64,000 nucleotides of DNA, from the NCBI GenBank assembly GCA_029838195.1, contig JALGVJ010000003.1, forward strand, positions 32,001-96,000. The letters run 5' to 3'. A model generated the notes under the pieces. It searched no databases. It was not told the origin of the DNA and saw only the letters and a program-made list of their open reading frames with translations. The translations under genes were made by a program, and so were the position numbers. Positions 202 to 18,160 of this stretch are shown here, one piece after another (the first letter of the stretch is position 1; each line of letters opens with the position of its first letter). This DNA comes from Promethearchaeota archaeon. Its GTDB lineage: Archaea; Asgardarchaeota; Lokiarchaeia; Sigyniarchaeales; SOKP01.

Positions 202-3200
202 AAATAGAATTAAAATCTTTAAAATTAAGAAATTTCATGGTAATTAAAAAGGCTACTATTAATTTCATTCATGGGATAATGGCGATCATAGGGCCAAATG
301 AAGCAGGAAAATCCACTATTATAGAGGGCGTCTTATTCAGCTTATTCGGCAAACGAGCATTTAGAGATTATGAACATTTAATCCATTTTGAATCAAATCA
401 TGCTAAAATTTCCCTAATCTTTTCCGTTAGGGATAATATTTATCGAGTAAATCGAGAATTAAGAAAGAGCAAATCAGGTTCAACAAGTCAAATAAATGCT
501 GTACTTTCAGAGTTAACCAATGGAGAAGAGCATTTTATTATAGCTAAAGGGGTATCAAACGTTGATTCTCAAATTGAACGAATCATTGGATTTTCTTATA
601 ATGAACTCACGGCTTCAAATATTATCGCTCAGAAGAAATTAAACAAGATAAGTAAAATGACACCTCAAGAATGGAAGGAATTATTTAATGAATTTCTAAA
701 CCTAAAAGGATTCGGAGATAGTATTTCAGAATTAAAAGAAGAGAAAAAAGAAAAACAAAATCAATTAAATAATGATGAGATTAGATTAGATGAATTGAAA
801 AATAAAAAGGATGATTATTGGTCTCGATTCAAGGAATTAATTAGATTATCTAAAAATCATTATCGTAAAGCTAGAACTCACAGAAAACTCTCTAAAGAAG
901 TAGAAATTTTATCAAAATATTTGAAAATTGTAAAAGATTACATAGAAAAAAGAGATCTAAAAATGAGACTTCAAGATGAGATGGCCTCTAAAGAGAAATT
1001 TTTAAACCAGTATAATGAACGTTTAGCTGAGATCGAGGCCTTAGAAGAAGAAACAGCACAATTAAAACATCAATTGGAAATTTATAAGGGATTAAATGAT
1101 GATGAAAAAAATTTTCTTAATATCAAAAACCATTTTGAGAATTATCAAAAAACACTAAAAAGAATAGAAGAATTAAAAGAAAAATTAAGATATATTATAG
1201 AATTAGAGGGAAAACTAGAAAATAAGAAAGAAAAATTTATAGAATACAAAGATATGCCTAATCAATTGAAACATTTCAGGGATTTAGAATCCTCATACAA
1301 ATTTTTAGAAGTTAATGTAAAGGAGAGAAATTCGCTTGAAGAAGAATTGAATAAGGTTATTACAGCCGAGAAAGAAGTAGCGAATTTAAAAAAAGATTTA
1401 TTGAAGGTAGAAGAAGATCTCAGTTATAAAAATGATTATATAGAAGCTGAAAATAAATTTCGTGAATTTAAAGCCAAATATGATCAAATAAAATATGAAA
1501 GAGATAAAAAAGAAGAATTAAAATTTGAGATTACCAAAATTAAGAAAACTTGTCCGAAAGAAACTCCCGAAGAGCTTGGAAATTTAAAAGAATATAAGGA
1601 TAGTTTGGAAAATCTTGTTAAAAAAGGTTTATTAAATTATATCACCCACTCATTTAAGTGGAATCTCCCCATTCTGATTGGATTTATAATAATTAGCTTA
1701 ATACCTATTTTTTTTGGTCGAATATTATATTCATTCATAGGAATAGGAGCATTTGCCCTATTTTTTATCTATTTATATTATAAATACCTTTCGCTTCAAG
1801 CATTAGTTAAAAAATTGGAAAATTTGATTTTTTCATTAAAAAAACTACAAAAAATAAAAGAAGAATTAAAATCAGTTGAGAAAAGCCTGGAAAAAAAATA
1901 TATTTCAATAGCTGAAATAATTAAAAGTTTATCAGAATATTATAGTAGTTCTTTTCAAGCGACGGAGGGCCTAAAAGAACAAGTATATTCATTAAATCTC
2001 TATTTTCAAGAAATTAATAAGAAATTGAATAGTTCAGAAGCTCGAATGGAAAATTTAAATAAAAAAATCAAGGAATTAAAAAAGCTCATAAAAAAGAAAC
2101 CAAAATTAGAGTATGATTTAGAAAACTCAATCAAGAATATTCATGAGGATAAAAAGCAATTGGATGCCATTTTTTCTGATGGTTTAGAAGAAAAGTATAT
2201 CAAAGAAAGGATTGACAAAATCTACTATGATGATTACATTGATTTTTCTATAGTAAAGCAACAGTTAAAGCAGATAGAAAATATTATTCTTAAAGATTTT
2301 GATCAATATAATATTTTAAAGAGAGAGATTGAAGATTTAAAAACTAAAACTAAAGATAAATCAACAGTGATTGAGAATTTAAAAAAAAAACAAAAAGAAA
2401 AACAAACTATATTTAATACTTTAGTTGAATTAATTGAAAGAATTAACCAAAAATATATAAATTCCATTACAAGTGAATTAACTATACATGAACAAGTAGA
2501 AAAAGTAATTCCTTTTGAAAATTCCATTAAAAAGCTTAATTCTTTTATCCAAGAAGATAAAAACGCACGTGACAAATTAGAAGCCCAAATAAATACAAAT
2601 AGCGCTCAGATCAATAAAAAACCGGAAGTAATTAAAAACATTAACAATATTAAAGGAGAGATACAAGAGATAATTTCCAATATAAAATCTATAGTTTTTC
2701 CAATAATCCCTGAAGAGATTTCAAATATCTTTGATAAAAATAAACCTAAAGATTGTCAGAATACCTTGGAAAATGAAATTATTGACTTAGATGAAAAAAG
2801 AAATCAAATTTATGGTGAAATGAAATCTATAAATACATCTAGAACAAAGATTCGTAATTATCTGAAAGATAATGAGCAAATTATTCATGATTTTTTTAAA
2901 ATGAAAAAAAAAGTTGAGAATTTAGAAAGAGAAATAAAAATATATAGTAAATCCATAGATTTGCTTGAACAAGTTAATAGAAAGATTTGGGATCTCCAAA
3001 TGCCCTATATCTATAGTTATATCAAGGAATTTTTACCTAAAATCACAATGGGGAGATATAGAAATATGATCATAACGCAGCCCGAATCACGTAGGAAGAA
3101 AAAATATGAATTTAAAGTATTTGAGGAAACTATAGAAACATATATAGATAAAAAATATTTATCAGGGGGTACTGATGATCAAATTTTACTAGTTATACGT

Positions 3201-3464
3201 GTTGCTGTTGCCATGTCTTTATTACCGCAATCTAAAGGACATTATCCTAAATTCATCTTTATTGACGAAGCATTCGCTTCAAGCGATGCTCAAAGAAGGA
3301 TGGAAATCTTAAATTGGTTAAAAAAAGATCTCTCCTCCATTTTTACACAGATCATTATCATCTCGCATCAAAAAGAAATTATTGAAGAAATACCCTATTA
3401 TTATAAACTCAATAGAGGAGATTTAATTGATAAATTTTTACCTGATCGAGAAATCATAAATTAA
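198..3464 (+). CDS. Rad50/SbcC (YhaN-like) SMC-family ATPase with an internal transmembrane hairpin
   Basis: Walker A GPNEAGKS, Q-loop IAQ, long coiled coils, signature LSGGT, Walker B FIDEAF, H-loop ISHQ. The typical N-terminal strand IELKSLKLRNF lies upstream of ATG 237, implying an ATA start at 198 or 204. Confidence 0.9.
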   Translation: MKIELKSLKLRNFMVIKKATINFIHGIMAIIGPNEAGKSTIIEGVLFSLFGKRAFRDYEHLIHFESNHAKISLIFSVRDNIYRVNRELRKSKSGSTSQINAVLSELTNGEEHFIIAKGVSNVDSQIERIIGFSYNELTASNIIAQKKLNKISKMTPQEWKELFNEFLNLKGFGDSISELKEEKKEKQNQLNNDEIRLDELKNKKDDYWSRFKELIRLSKNHYRKARTHRKLSKEVEILSKYLKIVKDYIEKRDLKMRLQDEMASKEKFLNQYNERLAEIEALEEETAQLKHQLEIYKGLNDDEKNFLNIKNHFENYQKTLKRIEELKEKLRYIIELEGKLENKKEKFIEYKDMPNQLKHFRDLESSYKFLEVNVKERNSLEEELNKVITAEKEVANLKKDLLKVEEDLSYKNDYIEAENKFREFKAKYDQIKYERDKKEELKFEITKIKKTCPKETPEELGNLKEYKDSLENLVKKGLLNYITHSFKWNLPILIGFIIISLIPIFFGRILYSFIGIGAFALFFIYLYYKYLSLQALVKKLENLIFSLKKLQKIKEELKSVEKSLEKKYISIAEIIKSLSEYYSSSFQATEGLKEQVYSLNLYFQEINKKLNSSEARMENLNKKIKELKKLIKKKPKLEYDLENSIKNIHEDKKQLDAIFSDGLEEKYIKERIDKIYYDDYIDFSIVKQQLKQIENIILKDFDQYNILKREIEDLKTKTKDKSTVIENLKKKQKEKQTIFNTLVELIERINQKYINSITSELTIHEQVEKVIPFENSIKKLNSFIQEDKNARDKLEAQINTNSAQINKKPEVIKNINNIKGEIQEIISNIKSIVFPIIPEEISNIFDKNKPKDCQNTLENEIIDLDEKRNQIYGEMKSINTSRTKIRNYLKDNEQIIHDFFKMKKKVENLEREIKIYSKSIDLLEQVNRKIWDLQMPYIYSYIKEFLPKITMGRYRNMIITQPESRRKKKYEFKVFEETIETYIDKKYLSGGTDDQILLVIRVAVAMSLLPQSKGHYPKFIFIDEAFASSDAQRRMEILNWLKKDLSSIFTQIIIISHQKEIIEEIPYYYKLNRGDLIDKFLPDREIIN

Positions 3465-5602: not shown

Positions 5603-6982
5603 TTAACGCCCTTGTTTGTTGATTAGTATATTTGGAAAGAGCATTCTTGCTAAAGAAATAAGAAGTGTTTCTAATTCTGGTGTAAAGAGTCCAATTTGAT
5701 TAGAAAAGTTTATATTAAATGGAAACCACGGTTTTATCTGAAAATATATGGGAATTTTAAGTTGGGGAATGCCTTCTTTCCTTTTATCATCATCAAACAT
5801 TATTTTTATCCAAGATTCATAATCTGTACTTTGATAAGGATTTTCAACATTAAAAAAACAAGAGCTTAATCCACCAATATGTCTTGCCTTATCATGACCC
5901 CATCTTGCAAAATATTGACGATTTTTTCCTGCTGATACCCCCTTTAAATTAGCTGAAAAATTTCCATTTCTCCCAAGAGTTTCTGTTTTACCTATATAGA
6001 GGGGAATAAATTTAGAGGGAAGAGATTCTTGGGAAAAATCAGGTAGAGTTTTAATATCAGAACGAAGAACATAAACCATATAAATTAATCCATCAGTAAA
6101 AAAGGGAACTTGTTCCTCATAATCACCAAATGCATTGTTATTATCTATTTGACTATAATAATTATAAGATTCTTCTATTATCATCGCTGCTTTAATTACC
6201 TGGTCAATCATAAAAGGGTGCCTTTTTAATATTTTTAATCCATTTATATCTTCAAATTTTACTCTATAGGATTTTTCATCATAATCAAAAAGAGGAATTA
6301 AATTTATTTTATTAGATAAAGGTGGAAAAGGTATATTTTCTTCTTTTAAGAACCACGTATTAAACCATTCGTTCCATAAAGAAATTGAATCATTTCCTAA
6401 GATTTCAATTAAATACTCTTTTTTTGAAAGCGTTTTTAACTTAAAATTTAAGAGGTTTGAAAAAAATTTTGAATTCTGCCATTTTTGTCTACTAATAAAA
6501 TTATGATTTATTAATGCCCTTGGAAATCTTAATGCAAAATAGGATATTAAGATCGCTTCAGCATTCGAAAGATTAGAATGAAGTTCAAAAGGAAGAATAT
6601 TTTTAATTATCCGTTCTTTATTCCAAAAAAATAAAACAAGAAAAAGTGGAAGTTTTTTATCTTTTTTGAAAAAATGAGCATGCATTCGTATATAGAAGTT
6701 ATCTTCTAATAGAGACAATCCTTTGAAATGTTGTTTTAAGCGATTTATATTTTTAGTTGTTGATTTTCCGATATATATACTTTTTACTAAGGAACCGTCA
6801 TATTTAATGAAAATATAAAGAAATTTTTTCCCGGAAATCTCACTTTTTAAAGATTCAAATACATTATTCCATGATTCTGGTTCAAATTTTATAGTTTCTT
6901 CTTGTAATAATACAATTTTATCAGGAAATAATAAGAAATATTTAAATATTTCTTCTATTTTTTGAAATTGGTGATTATCCAC
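5603..6982 (-). CDS. Nuclease with two tandem GIY-YIG domains
   Basis: Domain 1: FLYIF...IYIGKS...RLKQH...EAILI...LIN. Domain 2: GLIYM...LYIGKT...ETLLI...LINKQG. Confidence 0.75.
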   Translation of the reverse strand: MDNHQFQKIEEIFKYFLLFPDKIVLLQEETIKFEPESWNNVFESLKSEISGKKFLYIFIKYDGSLVKSIYIGKSTTKNINRLKQHFKGLSLLEDNFYIRMHAHFFKKDKKLPLFLVLFFWNKERIIKNILPFELHSNLSNAEAILISYFALRFPRALINHNFISRQKWQNSKFFSNLLNFKLKTLSKKEYLIEILGNDSISLWNEWFNTWFLKEENIPFPPLSNKINLIPLFDYDEKSYRVKFEDINGLKILKRHPFMIDQVIKAAMIIEESYNYYSQIDNNNAFGDYEEQVPFFTDGLIYMVYVLRSDIKTLPDFSQESLPSKFIPLYIGKTETLGRNGNFSANLKGVSAGKNRQYFARWGHDKARHIGGLSSCFFNVENPYQSTDYESWIKIMFDDDKRKEGIPQLKIPIYFQIKPWFPFNINFSNQIGLFTPELETLLISLARMLFPNILINKQGR

Positions 6983-7338: not shown

Positions 7339-8412
7339 ATGGAATCTCAAATAGATTTCGATATTAATGGAATTCAAAATATTTATGAAATTGTTGAAAA
7401 ACAGGTTAAACGCTTTCAACAACTACGACAATTAGTAAGAGAATTAAAATTTATTCCTGTAGACCCCATTGCGACTTATTCATCAGTTACTTATAAGTCT
7501 ATTGATGGTGGAAAAATGGGGATTTCATTTCATCCCTTTGAATTTGATTTTATTGTAATAGCAAATTCAATGGGTAGTGAATTGTTGAAATATTTAGTTC
7601 CAAAATCTGATTTTCTTAGTTCTTCAGATTTTCTTTATATGAATGGTTTTAAACAAATTAAATATTTACTAAATATTTTGGATTTAAACACGGTTTCAGA
7701 ATTATCTGATTTATTAATAAATCCGCAAATGGCAATGGAATTAACTGAATATGCTTGTATTTTCGAGAGATTAGGAAGAGATAAAAATGATCCAATAATT
7801 GTAATGAAAGATGGTCTTTTAAGGACAAAAGCGATTAAATATCAAATCATACCGAAAATGATCTCTTTTCTTAAAACTAATCCCAAGAGAAAATTAATTG
7901 GTGTTGCTAAAAGTTCACAGGTAATAAATCTAATATCGACAGCATTATATCTTGAAAAAGTAGTTCCTAAGAATTGCACAGGATTTATTGAGATTCCTTG
8001 GGAAATTGAAAAATTAGCATATAGGCAAAGTAAAATGAAATATCATTTGTATTATTCTTTTGGAAAGCTTTACGTGGCAAAATTATGTAAGAGATCAAAT
8101 CTATTAATCACTATTGAAATTCCTTATGATTTTAAAAATGATCAACCTGTTTATACTAAGTATGAAATTTTTGAAATTATTGGCCATTTAATCAAGGATT
8201 CAAGTGGATCCTATCCCATATTAGGATATCCCCAAACAATCATGAGAGCTCATGAAAAAGCTGTTAGGACTGGATTTTCCGCTTCTATTTGGAGAGATAA
8301 AATAATTAATTATTTATTAGAAAAACTTGGAGATAGAAAAATTAGGATTTTAATCCAAGAGAGTCATTTTCTTAAAGAATATGTACAAAAAGAAATATTA
8401 GGGGGGATATAA
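7339..8412 (+). CDS. nurA: NurA-family 5'-3' nuclease
   Basis: SIDGG, MKDGLL, GVAKSS and GYP..I..AHE motifs; directly upstream of herA. Confidence 0.85.
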   Translation: MESQIDFDINGIQNIYEIVEKQVKRFQQLRQLVRELKFIPVDPIATYSSVTYKSIDGGKMGISFHPFEFDFIVIANSMGSELLKYLVPKSDFLSSSDFLYMNGFKQIKYLLNILDLNTVSELSDLLINPQMAMELTEYACIFERLGRDKNDPIIVMKDGLLRTKAIKYQIIPKMISFLKTNPKRKLIGVAKSSQVINLISTALYLEKVVPKNCTGFIEIPWEIEKLAYRQSKMKYHLYYSFGKLYVAKLCKRSNLLITIEIPYDFKNDQPVYTKYEIFEIIGHLIKDSSGSYPILGYPQTIMRAHEKAVRTGFSASIWRDKIINYLLEKLGDRKIRILIQESHFLKEYVQKEILGGI

Positions 8413-8415
8413 TTA

Positions 8416-10593
8416 ATGGAAATGAATATTGGAGAACCTATAGGAATATTTTTGGGGATTGAAAGTACGACTTTTGAATATTTAGCAAGCATTATTACTC
8501 CATATCAATTAGATTATTCTCCAACAATTGGAACTTTTATACTAATCGATAATTTTGATGAGTATATTGTTGCTCGTGTAATGGAATATATCCCGCAAGG
8601 AGAAATGATTTCTTTTTATGGTAAAAAATGGTTATCTGAAGTAGCATTGACACCTGAAGTAATTGGGCAAGATATTAAAACAAGTAAGATAAGCTATTCA
8701 GTTAAAATAAAATTATTAGGGCGATTGAGTAAAAATTTAAGGACATTTATTCCTGGTATAAAAAGAATTCCTCACCTTACAAGTAAAGTTATTCAACCTA
8801 ACTCGAAAATCGTGAAAATCATATGTAATAAAGCATTGAAAGAAATGGAACAAGGAATAGAAATAGGGAATTATTGGAGTGATGAAAATATTAAGATACA
8901 TTTTGATATGAAAAGCTTAATTGGAAAAAGGACTTTCATATTCGCCCGAGCAGGTTACGGAAAAAGCAATTTAATGAAAATTATTGCTTCTAATTGGAAG
9001 GAAGAGTTTGGAAGTTTAATTATTTTTGATCCCGAGGGAGAATATTCAATTACAGATAAAAAAGAGCGCCCTGGAATAATGGATCAAATTCCCGCATTAT
9101 TAATAACTAATCGTATTGGAATTCAAGAAGGATTAGGTAATAATGTTTATAATAAATTAAAATTTGATTTTAGGAAGTTTCATCCAAAATTTATTATACC
9201 TATTATTGTTTCAGAGAGTAAATATGAATTTGTTTTTTTCAACAAGTTAATGAGCCTTACAAAGGAACAATGGTGTAATTTAATTGATTATTTATATGAA
9301 AATAGGTACAATGGAGAATATCACGAAATTGCGGAAATTATGGGAATAAAATATGAAAAACCTGTTGATGTTACTCCAATAATGAATAACATTATTCCTC
9401 CAATGGATCAATTACATGACCCAGAATCAAAACTTTTCTCAATATTAGAAAAAGCGGTAAAAAAAAATCTGATTATAATTATTGATATCTCATTATTAGC
9501 TTCAAATAATGCACTGAATTTATCTTCATTAATAATAAGTAAATTTTTCCGTAAAAATCAAAAAGAATTCACTATGAAAGGAAGGGATTTAAATAAAATT
9601 ACTTTTGTAATTGAAGAAGCTCAATCAGTAATAGGGGGCACGAATAATGTAAGTAAATTCGTTGAACTTGCTAAAGAAGGCCGGAAATATCAATTAGGGG
9701 CTATATTTATAACACAACAGCCAGGAAGTATTTCAATGGACATATTAAGTCAAGGAGATAATTTCTTTGTTTTTCATCTTTTAAGTAAAGATGATTTAAG
9801 AGCACTTCAAAAAGCTAATGCTCATTTTTCAAATGATATTCTAACTCAAATCTTGAGTGAACCTATTCCCGGTAAAGCATATATGTGGACCTCTCATCAG
9901 CCATTCGTAATTCCGCTTCAAATAAAAAATTTTGAATTAGAAGCAACACCAAATAAAGCTAAAGAAATACAAGCTCAAAATGATCTTTTAATGCCTATTT
10001 TAAACGAAATTGTTGAAATTTCCGAAATTGAAGAAAAAATAATAGAAAAATTCCAAACCATTTTAATAAATAATCAAATTGACATTCGGGATAAAGTTTC
10101 AATATTTAATAATACCTTAAAAAAAAAAATTACGGTTCAAACTTTTAAATTACTTTCCGAAAAAGAAATTAAATTCTTAGAAGAAAAAGATCTTTTAGCT
10201 AAAAATACAGAGACAAATAAACCTTATGCAGTAAGTTATAATTATCTCAGTGAGTTATATCAGAAAGCTCTTATGAAACATTCATTAAAAATAAAAAAAA
10301 ATATTCCTATTGAAGCAAATAGTACCGATTTGAAAATGATTATAGATGATTATTCTGTTAATATAAAAAACAATCCGAAAGATGGTAATTATGTAGAAAA
10401 TTTATATTATAGTTTTGAAACGGAAAAAGCAATAAAATTCAGACGTAAAAAAGACGATAAAATTCTTTGGATACCTAAATCTGCTATAAAAAATAAATGG
10501 GTTAAAGATAACAGTCTCTCTCAAAAAATTATTTTAAATTATATTCCCTCAGATTTCCAATGGAGTAAAGATAGAGAATTTAATGATAGGTAA
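8416..10593 (+). CDS. herA: HerA/FtsK-family helicase (DUF87) with a C-terminal extension
   Basis: HAS-barrel-like N-terminus, Walker A ARAGYGKS, FDPEGEY, Walker B VIEEAQ, KEGRKY, ITQQP. Confidence 0.85.
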   Translation: MEMNIGEPIGIFLGIESTTFEYLASIITPYQLDYSPTIGTFILIDNFDEYIVARVMEYIPQGEMISFYGKKWLSEVALTPEVIGQDIKTSKISYSVKIKLLGRLSKNLRTFIPGIKRIPHLTSKVIQPNSKIVKIICNKALKEMEQGIEIGNYWSDENIKIHFDMKSLIGKRTFIFARAGYGKSNLMKIIASNWKEEFGSLIIFDPEGEYSITDKKERPGIMDQIPALLITNRIGIQEGLGNNVYNKLKFDFRKFHPKFIIPIIVSESKYEFVFFNKLMSLTKEQWCNLIDYLYENRYNGEYHEIAEIMGIKYEKPVDVTPIMNNIIPPMDQLHDPESKLFSILEKAVKKNLIIIIDISLLASNNALNLSSLIISKFFRKNQKEFTMKGRDLNKITFVIEEAQSVIGGTNNVSKFVELAKEGRKYQLGAIFITQQPGSISMDILSQGDNFFVFHLLSKDDLRALQKANAHFSNDILTQILSEPIPGKAYMWTSHQPFVIPLQIKNFELEATPNKAKEIQAQNDLLMPILNEIVEISEIEEKIIEKFQTILINNQIDIRDKVSIFNNTLKKKITVQTFKLLSEKEIKFLEEKDLLAKNTETNKPYAVSYNYLSELYQKALMKHSLKIKKNIPIEANSTDLKMIIDDYSVNIKNNPKDGNYVENLYYSFETEKAIKFRRKKDDKILWIPKSAIKNKWVKDNSLSQKIILNYIPSDFQWSKDREFNDR

Positions 10594-12044: not shown

Positions 12045-13709
12045 ATGGAATTTGAAAATAGAATTTCTCCAGCGGTGGTTGATGAGACCTCATGGAAGGA
12101 GAATGAGGAGCAGGTTTCGGTCAAGCCTGAATTGGAGGTGGCCACGGTTCTTTCTTATTTTGAGGAGCAGCGGGATCCTGTTGGCAAAATAAAGAAAAAG
12201 TCGAAGGAGCAATATCAGAGCTTATTGAAGCTTTATTGGCCTTATTATTTGATTCCGCTGAGCGAGGAAAATAGTGCAATTGGGATTGACGGCATGGCCT
12301 TAAGTTCTCTGGAGCTATTCAAAGGTCTGGCGATTAGGGAAGAGCAGATAAGGAACGAATTAAAAAACTTGGAAGATGCTGCGTTGCTTGAAGGGCTGGC
12401 AAATTTACAAGAAGCTTATAAAAGTTTAGGGGAGAAAGAGAAAGTAAAAGGCCTATTGTCTCCCGAATTCACGAAAGCCTTAATTGATTTAAGCAATTAT
12501 AGCTTGAAAGAGGGGTATTTGGGAATCTCCATCACGCCAGTTGTAGATGAGGATAAAGCTACAGAGATTTTTGAGAAAGTGGACATTTACGTGAAGACTA
12601 TAGCGGAAATAAAAGGTGATATTGATAAGAAGAATCAAATGATTGAAGAGGCGCTTAAACAAAAGAAAGAGGAAATAAATGGAGAAATCAAGGCGTTAGA
12701 AGCGGAGTATGACCAAAAAATAAATGAAATGACTCCTATCATCGAGGAAAATAAGCGAAACATTAATTCTAAGAGACAAGGCGAGATTGCGCATTTAAAG
12801 GAAGAGCGGAACAAGGAAATCGTCCAGACCATGAATTTAATCAAGGAATCTTTCAAGCCTATAGAAGCGAAAGTGGCATTTCTCAATGATTTATGGGAAA
12901 AAGACAAGAATACGGTGTTGAATATAAACGAGTCGGGAGAATTAATATCAGAAATCGAAGGGAGCATTGACCGGTTCAAGAATAGGATAAAAGAATTTGA
13001 TACTGAATTGACTAATATCCGTCAAGAAATCAATAAGATTGCTGAGCGTTTCACTCAAATTAATCAAAAATATGATAATGAGGAAAATATTGTTAATTCA
13101 AAATATGATAAACAAATTCAAGAAGAGGAGGCAAAAATCTCGGCTTTAGAAAACGAGAAAAGCGGAAAAATTAAAGAACGGCAAGAGATGGCAAATAAAT
13201 TAGACCAGCAATTAGCTCACCTCCAAGAATTAACGGATTCATTCAAAGAGCAATTAGACCAATCTGTTTCAGATTTAGATGAATATATTGCGAGAAATAC
13301 GGAATTAGGAAAACCTCTTAAATTAGAAGTGCCCATTTGGGTGGCTAAATTTTTTCATGTTAAAGAAGGTAGTCGTCAAATAGTTTTACCTCCGGTTTTT
13401 CTCCCAAGAATCATGCCGAAGAAAATAAAAGATGATGGATTAGGGCAAAATGATATACCGGTCATGATTTACAATGAATTATTCATTCCACATCTCAAGG
13501 AAACCTTTCAGAAATTTCTACAAGAAGAATCTGCCGCGAAAAAGCAAATGGAGGAAGATATAGGCGAGCAAGATTATCTTAAAATTAAAGAAATTCGAAA
13601 TCGTTTTATTGACGGGATTGACATGCTCTTGGGAAGGCAATTGATCTCTGCCAAAGCAAAAGAGATCATCCAAGCTAACGTGCTGGCAGCCTTCAAATCA
13701 TTTGAATAA
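12045..13709 (+). CDS. Long coiled-coil hypothetical protein
   Basis: About 250 aa of heptad-rich sequence between globular YWPYY and VPIWV segments; higher GC than its neighbours. Confidence 0.75.
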   Translation: MEFENRISPAVVDETSWKENEEQVSVKPELEVATVLSYFEEQRDPVGKIKKKSKEQYQSLLKLYWPYYLIPLSEENSAIGIDGMALSSLELFKGLAIREEQIRNELKNLEDAALLEGLANLQEAYKSLGEKEKVKGLLSPEFTKALIDLSNYSLKEGYLGISITPVVDEDKATEIFEKVDIYVKTIAEIKGDIDKKNQMIEEALKQKKEEINGEIKALEAEYDQKINEMTPIIEENKRNINSKRQGEIAHLKEERNKEIVQTMNLIKESFKPIEAKVAFLNDLWEKDKNTVLNINESGELISEIEGSIDRFKNRIKEFDTELTNIRQEINKIAERFTQINQKYDNEENIVNSKYDKQIQEEEAKISALENEKSGKIKERQEMANKLDQQLAHLQELTDSFKEQLDQSVSDLDEYIARNTELGKPLKLEVPIWVAKFFHVKEGSRQIVLPPVFLPRIMPKKIKDDGLGQNDIPVMIYNELFIPHLKETFQKFLQEESAAKKQMEEDIGEQDYLKIKEIRNRFIDGIDMLLGRQLISAKAKEIIQANVLAAFKSFE

Positions 13710-13896: not shown

Positions 13897-14550
13897 TTAT
13901 TTTGACTTGTGAGTTCTAACTAAATCTACTATAGATTCTTCTGCTTTAAGGGTAAGAAGGCGATCTTTTTCTATCAAATGTAATTTTCTGGCCTTTTCAT
14001 TAATCAACCACAATTCAGAATGAATGTTTTCTTCGTCTTGTTTATTTTGATTTTTCCCTGGTAAGCGAATAGAACAAGATTGTAAATTGTCTATAATGCC
14101 ATAGATATAATCTCGAGAAATAATAGCATATTTGTCATGGATTTTTAATAATTTGAAGTACTCTTGAGGCTGATATTGGTCGCATTTATATTTAAAATGA
14201 AATTCCTTATTTTTATTAACATAAATGGGCATGCCACAAAAAATACATCTTCTTAAAGATCCTTGCACTTTTAAGAATCTTGGTTCTTCTGATAGATAAT
14301 ATTTAAATTTTGTATGACCATATCTTGTTTTATAACCTGAAAGACTTTGGAATTTGAAGATCTCATTATCTTCTTTAGCCCTTTTTTCCAAATGGTATTT
14401 AATTTTAGAAAGAGTCCAATCTTGAGCGGTAAAATAACCTTTTTGATAAAAAAAATCAGAATGTACATAATCAAGAATCTCCAATGGAGCACAAGGCCCA
14501 AATTCGGATACAATGTTTTTAATGAAATCCATTTTAGAATATAAAACCAT
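13897..14550 (-). CDS. Hypothetical protein with putative wHTH and Zn finger (CxxC...H...C)
   Basis: RRCIFCG...HFKYKC; starts about 50 bp after the SMC-NYN stop on the same strand. Confidence 0.65.
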   Translation of the reverse strand: MVLYSKMDFIKNIVSEFGPCAPLEILDYVHSDFFYQKGYFTAQDWTLSKIKYHLEKRAKEDNEIFKFQSLSGYKTRYGHTKFKYYLSEEPRFLKVQGSLRRCIFCGMPIYVNKNKEFHFKYKCDQYQPQEYFKLLKIHDKYAIISRDYIYGIIDNLQSCSIRLPGKNQNKQDEENIHSELWLINEKARKLHLIEKDRLLTLKAEESIVDLVRTHKSK

Positions 14551-14602
14551 GAACTTTATTTTTTTTTAAAATCTTCCCCTTTCTGAATAAAAATTTAAAA
14601 TT

Positions 14603-17600
14603 TTATAGTTTACCATCCATTATTTTTTTAATTTTTTCTTCGAAACCTTCTTCAAATTGAATTCTATTTACTAATATGTTATAACGTATGGAGTGTTCCT
14701 CAAGAAATTGATTATATTGAGGATATTTTTCTCGATAATCCAAATATCTATCATTAGTAATAATATAAGAATTGTTTTTCCGTGCAAAATCTATGATGAA
14801 CCAATCATCATCTCTTCCTGCTGGTGCTTGAGAGATGGTTGGTTCATTAATTAATTTTTCAAATAACATTAGTTCTCCTTCAGAAATTTTATGTCTGATT
14901 CCCGAACCAAAAAGAATTAAAATATTTTTTTCTGGTACTCCCAAATTAATAAGTTTCTTCTTACAATTAAGTACATTTCTAATTGAAGGTTTATTTGAAA
15001 TGGGATTACTATAAGCGATATTAGATCCATCCAGAATGAATGAAAATTCAAGAGAATCTTCTAAACCATCGTCAATTCCAAGAATGGGTCGTTTTTGAGA
15101 AATCGTAGATTCAGAGAAATTCCCATTATTATTAATTAAAGGTATCTTTCCTACATTAAAATCTAAAATTTTACGTTCTGAATTAGGAAAATTAATCTCT
15201 TGATAATATCCTTGAGTAGCCACTTCTTTTTGGAAATCATTAAGAATTTTAAGTTGAGAATTTAGACTATCGATATTAGAAGTAATCCCCCTCTTTTTTT
15301 CTTCATCAATAGTTCTTTCTACGAGTTCTGCGATGGTATCTAAATCCTCTTTTAAAGGCAGTAAATTGATAAATTTGGTAATATATCCTTTTTGAACCAT
15401 TTCTTCTTGAAATTGGTATAAATTTTGACCATGCTCGTGATCTAATAATGCATACGATTCATCAAGGACGACAATATTATATTTAGCAATTTTTGCACTC
15501 ATGGAGATAATGGAGCGACAATAAGCATAAGTCTTCTCGCCGCTTGAAAATTCTTCCAAATCTCTGGTTTCTTGTAACCCTGCTTTTGTTTCAAATATTA
15601 TTGTTTTATTTTTAATATCAAATTGTAAAATTTGAGAATAATCTTTAAACACGTATTCGAAAAATTCCTTTTTACCATAGATATCTTTAAAAATTTTATC
15701 AAATTGTTCAGTTATAATTTTTAAATGAGCTTCATTTTTAGGTTTCTTCCCTTCAATGACCTTTTCTATATCATCTTTAAGAATTTTCAATCGTTTTTGG
15801 AGTTCTTTTGTAGAATTAATATATTTATTTAGTTTTTCGACATGATTATTATAATAATCAATGAATTTTCCCATTTCCAAAAACCCGAATTTCCGTGCAA
15901 CCTCTTTTATTTTTGATGTTAATGGTTCTAATTTTTTTTTAAGATCTTCTACTGATGCTTTGATTTTTTCCTCCTCATATTCCATTTTATTTAATTCTTG
16001 TTTATCTAATTCAAGCTTTTGATTAAGTTCAACAATTTTTTGTGTAAGAGCCTTTGGATTTGGATGTGGTTGATTCCTGTTTAGCCCTAATTTATTAATA
16101 AGGGATAATTTAGAAGGGATTTCATTAATTCGATTTAATAAATTCTCAATATCTTCGATTTTTTTCTTACGGGAATCAATTTCACGCTCTAAATTTTCAA
16201 TATTTTTCGTTTTTTCTGTTATTTTTTCTTTTAAATTCTTAATTCTTGTGTTGAGATTAATATAATCATCGATTTTAGAACTCTTACCCATCAATTGCTT
16301 TTTTAAATTCATCAAACTTTTTTGATTCTTGCTATATTTTTTTAAAATTTCAAGAATTTCTTTATTTTTTTTAATTTTTTCATTTAAACCTTGAACGGTA
16401 TTTTTATATTGTTTCAATTTCTCATTTTCCTTAAAAACAAGATTATTCTCCTCAAAAATCTCATGAAGCTTTTTAAAAGAAAAATAGAGTTCATTTCCAT
16501 TCTCTAATTTAAATTTAATGAGGTTTTCTTTACCAAAATCATGAGAACTAGCTTTGCTACAAGTATCCCGTAATTGGGTTAGAAATTTATTTATTTCAAT
16601 AATTCTTTCATTCTTTTTATTTAATTGTTCAATAATGCTTTTAGAATCAGTTAATTCCTCTTCATATTTATTTATTTTTTGTCCAATTTCTTTAATAATC
16701 AAGTTTGATTCTTTTTCATGTAAACTCTCTAAATTCAAGTTGAAGTCATGAATTAATCGTTTTTCTAATTTATCCCTTTCTTTTTCCTTTTTTCCTATCT
16801 TTTTTAATAAGTTTTTGGTTTTTGTATCAAATTGATTTTGAAAATCTTCATATTTTTTTTGATAGTCAATTAATTTCTTATAATCTACTTCTTTTTTTTC
16901 TTTAAGCTGCTCAAGCTTCGATTCCTCTTCTTGTTTTTGCAGAGTTAAGCTTTCTTCGTCATTCTCACATATAAATAATAATTTTTTAAATAATCCAATT
17001 TGTTTTTCTATTTTTTCTATTTTCGATTTTCTATTTAAATTACTGTTCTTAAATTGATTGATTCTATTTAATTGGTCACTATATTGTTCTTGTAATTTAA
17101 TATAGGAAGTAATTGTATTACCTGTCATAGATTCAGATATCCATTCTTGATATTGATTTAGAAACTCTAATTTTTTCTCTAAATTTTTTATTTTTTGTTC
17201 TATTTTTGCTACAAACACATCCTTAAAGAATAGAATTTGCTGTTTAAGAGATTCATCTCCCCTAATGGTTCGAATATTGAAGCAATCACGAAATTTTTCA
17301 TGGCTGATTTCTCTCTCTCCTCTGTTATCTATTTCATAAAAATTTCCAAGACTCAATGGATTAATCCGATTTAAGCTATTATCAAATTTCCATAAATGGG
17401 GTATTAATTTCACTTTATATTTGAGATTTTTATTAATTTCAAATATAATTTCACATGATTCAATGGCTTTAATAAATTTTGTAAAGTTAGCTTCATTTTT
17501 GAAAATATAATTATCTGAAGCAATTTCAAGGAGTGTAGCGGCCATGGATTTACCAATTCCATTTTTACCATGAATAGTGATGATACTCTGAGGTGCGATA

Positions 17601-17671
17601 TAAGGAATAACGTTTCTTCCTCTTGCATTAATATTAATGCTAATGTATTGAGCTGGTTTCATATCAAGCAT
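14603..17671 (-). CDS. SMC/Rad50-like ABC ATPase fused to a C-terminal Zc3h12a/Regnase-type NYN (PIN-fold) ribonuclease
   Basis: Walker A GKNGIGKS, coiled coils, signature FSSGE, Walker B VVLDES/YALLD; C-terminal ILDGSNIA...DDDWFII...IITNDRYLD. Confidence 0.85.
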   Translation of the reverse strand: MLDMKPAQYISININARGRNVIPYIAPQSIITIHGKNGIGKSMAATLLEIASDNYIFKNEANFTKFIKAIESCEIIFEINKNLKYKVKLIPHLWKFDNSLNRINPLSLGNFYEIDNRGEREISHEKFRDCFNIRTIRGDESLKQQILFFKDVFVAKIEQKIKNLEKKLEFLNQYQEWISESMTGNTITSYIKLQEQYSDQLNRINQFKNSNLNRKSKIEKIEKQIGLFKKLLFICENDEESLTLQKQEEESKLEQLKEKKEVDYKKLIDYQKKYEDFQNQFDTKTKNLLKKIGKKEKERDKLEKRLIHDFNLNLESLHEKESNLIIKEIGQKINKYEEELTDSKSIIEQLNKKNERIIEINKFLTQLRDTCSKASSHDFGKENLIKFKLENGNELYFSFKKLHEIFEENNLVFKENEKLKQYKNTVQGLNEKIKKNKEILEILKKYSKNQKSLMNLKKQLMGKSSKIDDYINLNTRIKNLKEKITEKTKNIENLEREIDSRKKKIEDIENLLNRINEIPSKLSLINKLGLNRNQPHPNPKALTQKIVELNQKLELDKQELNKMEYEEEKIKASVEDLKKKLEPLTSKIKEVARKFGFLEMGKFIDYYNNHVEKLNKYINSTKELQKRLKILKDDIEKVIEGKKPKNEAHLKIITEQFDKIFKDIYGKKEFFEYVFKDYSQILQFDIKNKTIIFETKAGLQETRDLEEFSSGEKTYAYCRSIISMSAKIAKYNIVVLDESYALLDHEHGQNLYQFQEEMVQKGYITKFINLLPLKEDLDTIAELVERTIDEEKKRGITSNIDSLNSQLKILNDFQKEVATQGYYQEINFPNSERKILDFNVGKIPLINNNGNFSESTISQKRPILGIDDGLEDSLEFSFILDGSNIAYSNPISNKPSIRNVLNCKKKLINLGVPEKNILILFGSGIRHKISEGELMLFEKLINEPTISQAPAGRDDDWFIIDFARKNNSYIITNDRYLDYREKYPQYNQFLEEHSIRYNILVNRIQFEEGFEEKIKKIMDGKL

Positions 17672-17685
17672 TTTTCTTTCCCTCT

Positions 17686-18160
17686 TTATATTTTATTTCT
17701 ATTATCAAGGTATTTTCGGAACTCTTCATTAGAAAAATTTTCAAAATTATTACATTTAATGAGGGAATCCAGGAATTCTTGATAAACATCTTCTAAATTA
17801 AACGTCTCAACAATCTTCTGAATTAATGATTCTGTAATCATCTCATAATCCATAATTATTTCACGTAAAATATTTTTGCAGTTTTCCAATAAATACATGT
17901 GTTTTTTAGAAATTTATATCTTTCTAAAAATATAAAATTAGAAAATTTAAAAAATTCGAATCTCGCTTCATCACCATAACGACAATAAAAATTAAAAAAA
18001 TGTTATCATCCAATTCTCTAATAAACCACATTAATATAAATTTTTTTTTTGGTAATTGAGATAAATTAAATAATATCATCAAGAAGATTACATAAGAAAT
18101 GGTAGATTCAAAGAATTTAATATTATTAAGATTAATCTTTAAATGAGTATCAATAAGCAA
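17686..18160 (-). pseudogene. Small ORF or fragmented gene upstream of SMC-NYN
   Basis: 70-aa ORF 17686-17898 with protein-like open stretches in other frames upstream (e.g. FYCRYGDEARFEFF), separated by A/T homopolymers. Confidence 0.35.

Follow-up and report, generated by a model that had tools for sequence, protein, structure and literature searches.

What does a protein that joins an SMC-like ATPase to a Regnase-type nuclease do in an archaeon? The question is raised by a 1022-amino-acid (aa) open reading frame (ORF) in a 64,000-nucleotide stretch of DNA (hereafter the window) from a genome of the Lokiarchaeia (G000; 4.5 Mb, with a completeness of 96.6% and a contamination of 7.9%). The original prediction, made from the letters of the window, took this protein, a winged helix-turn-helix (wHTH)/zinc-finger partner and an upstream ORF for a candidate defence system in which a DNA-sensing SMC module gates an RNase. 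We found that the ATPase belongs to a conserved unit of three genes, encoding a small protein, the ATPase and a wHTH/Zn protein. Conservation of a three-gene neighbourhood was thus correctly foreseen, but not that these three genes form the core and that the NYN domain is only one of two exchangeable nucleases. An SMC-like ATPase core with a swappable RNase is what one would expect to see in an antiviral system yet to be described, and by analogy with RloC and Lamassu we consider it on balance probable that the unit is an accessory immune module of Lokiarchaeia, built around an ATP-gated RNase.

A conserved three-gene core

A 52-64-aa ORF lies immediately 5′ of the ATPase gene in 32/32 loci with upstream sequence, some of which are close kin. 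Likewise, a 200-230-aa wHTH/Zn gene was found in every locus with both flanks, either 3′ of the ATPase or 5′ of the small gene. The order is therefore small gene, then ATPase, with the wHTH/Zn gene on one or the other side depending on the locus. The corrected map of the window is as follows, with the basis of each entry in brackets.

17686-17853, minus strand: 55-aa gene with a three-helix product, upstream neighbour of the ATPase (alignments, complex prediction)
14603-17671, minus strand: 1022-aa SMC-superfamily ABC ATPase with a C-terminal Regnase-type NYN nuclease (44 homologues, AlphaFold2 model, Foldseek, VIA)
17252-17650, minus strand: N-terminal half of the ABC head, with Walker A at aa 35-42 and R137-G138, without Gln, at the Q-loop position (sequence, model, conservation)
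15677-17248, minus strand: antiparallel coiled coil, aa ~142-665, without a hinge domain or CxxC zinc hook (model secondary structure, 38 homologues)
16430-16546, minus strand: apex element of helix, beta hairpin and helix, aa 376-414 (model, conservation)
15182-15676, minus strand: C-terminal half of the ABC head, with SSGE, Walker B DE, D744 and NxLP at the H-switch, followed by a C-terminal helical hairpin (38/38 invariant)
15047-15181, minus strand: disordered linker, aa ~831-875 (predicted local distance difference test score, pLDDT; bridging contig)
14618-15046, minus strand: NYN/PIN nuclease of the RNase_Zc3h12a family (PF11977, VIA match, conservation)
13897-14550, probable start 14532, minus strand: wHTH protein of ~201-217 aa with a C-terminal domain that likely binds Zn (model, conservation, neighbourhood)
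17924-18160, minus strand: 78-aa ORF in the AT-rich upstream stretch, probably spurious and outside the unit (no homologues)

We placed the boundary of the unit at 17853 because the 78-aa ORF, which we rejected as a member, has no homologue at any locus. The G+C content (GC) around this ORF is 20%, and low-depth contigs from other runs show single-base indels there. Thus, of the "small or fragmented ORF" that the original prediction had seen upstream, the small part stood as one conserved 55-aa gene and the fragmented part did not. The ATPase gene has a GC of 26%, compared to a median of 36%, placing it in the 2nd percentile of 1785 long ORFs.

The fusion is real and its nuclease domain is of the Regnase type

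A protein search returned 44 relatives, of which 38 are near full length; all 38 carry PF11977, and the named ones are all from Lokiarchaeia. Conservation among the members is high, many showing 49-57% identity across ~1000 aa. The linker falls below a pLDDT of 50 at aa 839-873, and a 604-bp contig from run X2 spans it (14688-15291) with zero differences. With near-full-length homologues from many assemblies and a contig of another run over the junction, the fusion survives the suspicion of an assembly chimera: the SMC-ATPase/NYN protein is real. Longer fused forms were not found in a search limited to 1442-4115 aa, which is weak evidence.

The Pfam model RNase_Zc3h12a (PF11977) matched aa 879-1009 (E 6.8e-12; 45.8 bits against a curated cut-off of 23), corresponding to about nt 14618-15046 and in agreement with the predicted position of about 14603-15050. 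The VIA match to MCPIP1/Regnase-1 gave Z 16.3 and a root-mean-square deviation (rmsd) of 2.8 Å over 144 residues, and that to KHNYN gave Z 15.6. The Regnase active site comprises five Asp (PMC5499597). Four acidic residues (D881, D955, D956 and D974) are invariant in 38/38 homologues, and the fifth position, 978, is D/E in 31/38, bearing out the claim that the acidic motifs are retained. Judged by sequence and model, the domain is a Regnase-type nuclease with intact catalytic residues, and RNase activity is predicted.

The fused NYN domains grouped (100/100) with three stand-alone NYN proteins of Lokiarchaeia, one of which bears an FHA domain; the effector is therefore drawn from a native pool. 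Lokiarchaeia commonly encode Regnase-type NYN proteins that stand alone (L001 7329-8474, L063 1852-2682, L077 174-842 and L013-L023). They include an FHA-NYN protein of Ca. Lokiarchaeum ossiferum and a separate family of 345-526 aa.

A divergent SMC-type ATPase

The 1022-aa ORF contains GKNGIGKS (aa 35-42), FSSGE (708-712) and VVLDES with Walker B D737-E738. In the AlphaFold2 model (mean pLDDT 80) a split head carries an antiparallel coiled coil of ~520 residues with an apex of 40 residues, and the last head strand is followed by a helical hairpin, the linker and a PIN fold, in keeping with the split ABC head and long coiled coils that had been predicted. Walker A is N-terminal, the signature and Walker B are C-terminal, and an antiparallel coiled coil lies between them, as in the SMC superfamily. 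Foldseek matched the long part of the model to Rad50, Smc5/6, condensin, MukB, JetC and LmuB, and its tail to ZC3H12/KHNYN. By VIA, RecF, Rad50 and SMC heads tied at Z 13-14, with Thermotoga Rad50 at Z 14.1.

None of the 38 near-full-length homologues departs from the signature, Walker B or D744, and K41 and S42 are retained in all 36 that have the N-terminus. Both the Q-loop Gln and the H-switch His are absent, replaced by R137-G138 and L771-P772, which are likewise invariant in 38/38. A search for CxxC anywhere in the 38 homologues found none, hence no zinc hook. The model contains no hinge domain, the apex being only ~40 residues of helix, beta hairpin and helix. Conservation is 0.64 at the apex (aa 361-420) compared to 0.51-0.54 in the coils, and the apex could possibly act as a tip for dimerisation or sensing.

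An attempt to place the ATPase with the Rad50, SMC, ASRP, JetC or LmuB groups did not succeed: profiles of its head found no significant relative among the SMC-like proteins of its own genome, PDB sequences, NCBIfam or PADLOC. With respect to ClsN/Sph (ASRP), the single outside match was an Sph-like protein at E 2.8e-6 with only 3% coverage; the head-to-head probability was 0.3%, and no reliable tree was obtained. By these profile comparisons the head is too divergent for placement within the superfamily.

Two conserved partners

Complex prediction for the 55-aa protein with the ATPase scored 0.64, compared to 0.35 for the best control, with contacts at aa 149-181 and 610-663, at least 93% contact agreement between runs and a partner pLDDT of at least 81. 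In calibration the mark was reached by 58/80 solved and 2/110 mismatched pairs, counts that are only roughly valid for self-made alignments, and resemblance to Mre11-Rad50 or kleisin-SMC complexes could raise the score. The predicted complex supports binding of the 55-aa protein to the head-proximal coiled coil, or neck, of the ATPase. The Rad50-binding domain of Mre11 and the N-terminus of kleisins bind at this site. Kinship of the 55-aa protein with the C-terminus of the local Mre11 was considered and received no support from profile comparison, and a PDB profile search with the protein gave repeat-driven matches only.

The same-strand 217-aa ORF (13897-14550) has homologues that begin at Met7 (nt 14532). 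The model of its product (pLDDT 89) contains a winged helix that matched Fur (Z 7.7, rmsd 3.3 Å, 68 residues), a common fold. C102-x2-C105, H118 and C123 are invariant in its homologues, even at ~20% identity, and the C-terminal domain that carries these residues likely binds Zn. The wHTH/CxxC-H-C assignment thus holds in both halves. No fold match was found for the C-terminal domain, which was barely probed, as the winged helix filled the match lists.

The nuclease is exchangeable

A profile search using the wHTH protein reached distant members of the family. Five distant loci (L053, L054, L080, L081 and L082) keep the three-gene core and lack NYN, and carry instead a separate beta-CASP gene beside the ATPase; the nuclease slot is therefore exchangeable. 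In the metagenomic loci L053 and L054 the ATPase ends at ~aa 826 and the beta-CASP gene lies directly 3′. In L080 the order is wHTH, small gene, ATPase (830 aa) and beta-CASP, while in L081 and L082 it is beta-CASP, small gene, ATPase (783 aa), wHTH and a 327-aa gene. Each non-truncated ATPase locus has exactly one nuclease, whether a fused NYN or an adjacent beta-CASP; loci with both or with none were not seen. Seven more NYN-less ATPases are 781-809 aa long or partial, with neighbours seen for only a minority. A fixed ATPase with swappable effectors is typical of ABC-ATPase defence (PMC12663957; 10.1101/2024.01.29.577857).

The ATPases of the upstream-beta-CASP type are 23-28% identical to those of the other types. 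The five cassette beta-CASPs keep their metal motifs (HAHxDH and a His in the last motif), group with CPSF-like paralogues and branch in a manner that mirrors their ATPases. In the tree they are set apart as a single clade from three housekeeping paralogues of G000 (95/97, with a small outgroup). We read the last-motif His as a sign of RNA cutting. On the basis of sequence and models, both nuclease types belong to RNA-cutting groups. In the ATPase tree the NYN form P0042, on a long branch, fell outside a group formed by the downstream-beta-CASP and main NYN forms; NYN was therefore gained twice, or was lost again, or P0042 is misplaced.

Three further observations concern these loci. The ATPase of L081 (5641-7989) is broken into ORFs of 220 and 444 aa, its cluster mates being intact at 782 aa, which indicates a pseudogene or an assembly error. 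The 327-aa genes 3′ of the wHTH gene (L081 8625-9608 and L082 8627-9610) are 46% identical and possibly a fifth component. Lastly, the NYN-less ATPase P0090, from the cluster of P0081, lies on a 75-kb contig labelled Patescibacteria, through mis-binning or transfer.

Distribution and genomic setting

Of 400 Asgard genomes, 7 gave strong matches to the ATPase head, each of them one of the 161 Lokiarchaeia, and an eighth genome holds the N-terminal part at a contig end. The unit thus occurs in 8/161 Lokiarchaeia genomes (~5%) and in 1/40 high-quality ones. It was not found in a same-genus genome (96% complete) or in the ~239 other Asgard genomes searched, and no relative was found in the viral contigs and plasmids searched. 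A distribution this patchy is not that of a syntenic core gene of the class. Most copies of the unit lie close to defence genes, and neighbours at other loci include Cas1/2/4/6, Cas3, type II and III restriction-modification, NucS, MNT-HEPN, TIR, PRTase-CE, OLD, GIY-YIG and NurA-HerA genes. The unit therefore shows both marks of systems directed against mobile genetic elements, patchy distribution and defence-gene neighbourhoods, the latter as a raw observation.

The original prediction placed the genes inside an AT-rich nuclease island. The genes are AT-rich (GC 26%), but they do not lie inside the large island, since a 554-aa gene of ordinary GC (12045-13709, plus strand; GC 37%) intervenes. 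Its product is a coiled-coil protein without ATPase motifs, 66% identical to one in the same-genus genome; a search of four other members of the family did not find it. In the same-genus genome the flanking genes are 11.6 kb apart, one of them inverted, with unrelated genes between; consequently there is no clean insertion (empty) site. No Rfam RNA was found at the unit.

Beyond the 554-aa gene the island contains HNH, NurA-HerA and Mre11-Rad50-like genes, viperin and a CD-NTase-like gene, the last two ~20 kb from the unit. NurA, HerA, Mre11-like and 1075-aa Rad50-like genes occupy 237-3464 and 7339-10593 of the window and L065 8002-12202, just upstream of it (all plus strand), with a second NurA-HerA pair 4 kb on. 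The 1075-aa Rad50-like protein has a hydrophobic stretch at ~aa 465-510, the expected place of a hook. An HNH endonuclease gene (PF13395; 10616-11860, plus strand) lies 3′ of HerA, and a 459-aa protein (5603-6982, minus strand) has two YIGK[ST] motifs, which hint at GIY-YIG-like domains in tandem; neither matched PADLOC. A single cluster at L065 3548-7751 (G000 C87, ~23.5-27.8 kb) combines viperin (pVip E 2e-85) with a CD-NTase-like cyclase (PADLOC E 3e-23) and with two further genes for HTH-containing proteins or putative regulators. At three other loci a P-loop ATPase of 740-820 aa, preceded by a small gene (in L053 one that encodes a SAP domain), lies near the unit (L053 4686-7588, L041 6855-9680 and L074 420-3452), possibly another accessory system.

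How the unit might work

We infer DNA sensing, ATP gating, an RNA target, a defence role and abortive infection, in the following manner. The 55-aa protein would clamp the coiled-coil neck beside the head, as the complex model suggests. ATP would bring two heads together as a dimer that recognizes a structure in foreign or damaged DNA, with help from the wHTH/Zn protein, unless the role of the latter is confined to regulating the operon. The ATP cycle would then set the nuclease free, be it the tethered NYN domain or, in other lineages, the partnered beta-CASP, and its cutting of cellular RNA would lead to dormancy or death of the infected cell.

Several findings support this immune reading. 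The three-gene core is fixed across very divergent members (23-28% identity); each non-truncated locus has one exchangeable nuclease of an RNA-cutting family; and the unit combines patchy distribution, low GC and defence neighbours. Moreover, the cassette beta-CASPs form their own clade and branch like their ATPases, the predicted neck complex scores above controls, and RloC provides a precedent for a Rad50-like ATPase that switches on a fused RNase. Other points weigh against it. ATP turnover may be unusual, because the head lacks both the Q-loop Gln and the H-switch His. The defence neighbours are a raw observation, and L028 and L080 lie among housekeeping genes with no defence neighbours. 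A search for an integrase, att repeat or tRNA at the unit found none, and hence no mark of mobility. An orphan wHTH/Zn gene (L074 9537-10142) occurs in a genome that is 99% complete and has no ATPase match (G036). Finally, DNA is a presumed trigger, and several ABC defence ATPases sense proteins instead.

An alternative to which we give an outside chance is targeted silencing, in which a hingeless SMC-like complex, of a new type found only in Lokiarchaeia, would recognize extrachromosomal or foreign DNA and hold an mRNA-cutting enzyme by nascent transcripts, so that only invader RNA is cut and the cell is not killed. Both effector families (Regnase and CPSF-like beta-CASP) act on mRNA or nascent RNA, the NYN domain is tethered via a flexible linker of ~40 aa, the wHTH partner could supply a DNA contact, and the H-switch Pro is reminiscent of Smc5/6, MukB and JetC. 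However, the unit lacks the hinge, the kleisin-sized subunit and the tandem-wH KITE subunit of SMC complexes that sense extrachromosomal DNA (PMC10586767). In the beta-CASP types, moreover, the nuclease is a separate protein.

It is improbable that the unit is a DNA-cutting machine akin to Mre11-Rad50 or Wadjet, in which the nuclease attacks ATPase-bound DNA. Certain PIN and beta-CASP enzymes do cleave DNA, the order of beta-CASP, small protein and ATPase in L081 and L082 mirrors Mre11(SbcD)-Rad50(SbcC), and the small protein is predicted at the binding place of Mre11. Yet the NYN domain is of the Regnase/PRORP type, and those members of it that have been studied cut RNA endonucleolytically (PMC5499597). 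The beta-CASPs retain the last-motif His and cluster with paralogues of the CPSF-like kind, and G000 already has other Rad50- and SMC-like genes.

We hold it to be similarly improbable that the unit is a stress-responsive or selfish module of the toxin-antitoxin kind, with an RNase toxin restrained by the small protein and the ATPase, an operon repressed by the wHTH protein and no antiviral role. Such a module could well consist of a toxin from the PIN family, a tiny gene upstream and a wHTH regulator, and a wHTH gene would suit it that lies on either side of the unit and once alone. Nevertheless, the small protein is predicted on the ATPase neck and is kept despite replacement of the nuclease, and a conserved 830-aa ATPase would be superfluous for simple addiction.

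A housekeeping complex for RNA processing or chromosome organization is very doubtful and largely refuted. The high conservation of many members and the settings of L028 and L080 would suit it, but the unit is confined to ~5% of the genomes of the class, its neighbours vary by locus, its GC is in the 2nd percentile, and closed genomes without it (e.g. G016, which has stand-alone NYN only) speak against an essential role. An assembly chimera or chance fusion, for which the bin contamination of 7.9% might be cited, is refuted by the homologues from many assemblies and the X2 contig, and its probability is negligible.

Significance

If the unit is a defence system, it would add an undescribed SMC-type immune sensor beside Wadjet, Lamassu and RloC, with its own set of subunits and effectors from RNase families only. 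Regnase-family RNases are immune enzymes in eukaryotes. The immune reading, if true, would provide a prokaryotic function for the Zc3h12a-type NYN domain in the archaea closest to eukaryotes; in bacteria its function is listed as unknown (PMC5499597). If silencing were instead correct, two themes of eukaryotic innate immunity, episome restriction of the Smc5/6 type and RNA decay by Regnase/N4BP1/KHNYN, would be combined in one Asgard machine. Gating and target are directly testable, because the fused form is compact, with three genes and clear mutable residues. PADLOC models miss the unit, and surveys of Asgard defensomes based on such models would therefore overlook it.

Comparison with known systems

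By sequence and structural model the unit matches no named system: it is not RloC, Lamassu or Wadjet, because it has no hinge, zinc hook, HEPN, LmuA or Toprim part. PADLOC scans gave little beyond coiled-coil-level matches, and nothing for the N-terminal half of the head, the NYN domain or either partner; no PADLOC family or solved structure corresponds to the unit. A literature search, sparse on subscription journals, found no description of it, and neither SMC nor NYN comes up in two recent papers on Asgard archaea. The suspicion that this fusion belongs to no named system was thus upheld.

Like the fused form, RloC combines a split ABC ATPase, an inserted coiled coil and an RNase at the C-terminus in a single polypeptide. 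RloC, however, carries a zinc hook and consists of one gene, whereas the unit has no CxxC and has two conserved partner genes. The RNase of the unit is a Regnase-type NYN/PIN domain or a separate beta-CASP, not a C-terminal HEPN anticodon nuclease as in RloC. The Rad50-like, DNA-dependent ATPase of RloC switches on its fused RNase through a proposed internal switch (PMC3458546).

In Lamassu, DNA ends are sensed by a hingeless SMC-like protein that has a small partner and acts through effectors that can be exchanged (PMC12663957). Lamassu/ABC-3C (LmuABC) and the unit share a hingeless Rad50/SMC-like ATPase, a small partner just 5′ and exchangeable effectors. However, the unit has no LmuA carrying the shared C-terminal domain: its effector is fused to the ATPase or is a plain beta-CASP ending in its own RMMBL motif, and the one weak LmuA match of a beta-CASP spans only the generic metallo-beta-lactamase start. 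Full-length matches to the PADLOC LmuB models (E 1e-6 to 1e-3) fell mostly on the coiled coil, and head-only scans matched 1/13 members (E 0.004). The Walker B of the unit retains DE, whereas LmuB generally has E-to-Q (PMC10586767). LmuC models match neither partner, although LmuC is too diverse for exclusion by such a miss (PMC12663957). By analogy, LmuC-like roles seem to be divided between the 55-aa neck binder and the wHTH/Zn protein.

With Wadjet (JetABCD) and Smc5/6 the unit shares an SMC-type ATPase, a winged-helix partner, a predicted neck-binding helical partner, a separate nuclease in some forms and a Pro at the H-switch position, as in Smc5/6, MukB and JetC. It differs in lacking a hinge, a kleisin-sized subunit and a Toprim DNase (JetD), its nuclease slot being NYN or beta-CASP at all loci. 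Instead of a tandem-wH KITE it has one wH plus Zn domain (~201 aa) and the 55-aa partner, with no matches to JetA or JetB, and its ATPase portion is ~830 aa compared to 1100-1470 for JetC models.

Mre11-Rad50/SbcCD resembles the unit in head fold (Z 14.1, Thermotoga Rad50), in the predicted neck-binding helical partner and in the nuclease-partner-ATPase order of L081 and L082. Unlike that core machinery the unit is accessory, and it lacks a zinc hook, an adjacent calcineurin-like Mre11/SbcD nuclease and the H-switch His. HEC-03, in which an ABC ATPase and a VapC-like PIN protein are both required for phage defence (10.1101/2024.01.29.577857), also pairs an ABC ATPase with a PIN-superfamily RNase, but as two genes with a VapC-type PIN, and the domains of the unit have no PADLOC match. 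Regnase-1/ZC3H12, KHNYN and N4BP1 have the NYN fold and acidic active site in common with the unit, yet identity is only ~19%, the unit has no CCCH or KH domain, and its closest NYN relatives are the stand-alone proteins of Lokiarchaeia. Taken together, the unit would work like RloC and Lamassu, yet it lacks features by which each of these, and also Wadjet and Rad50, is defined. It is a real and undescribed system-level variant of the presumed ATPase-gated nuclease kind.

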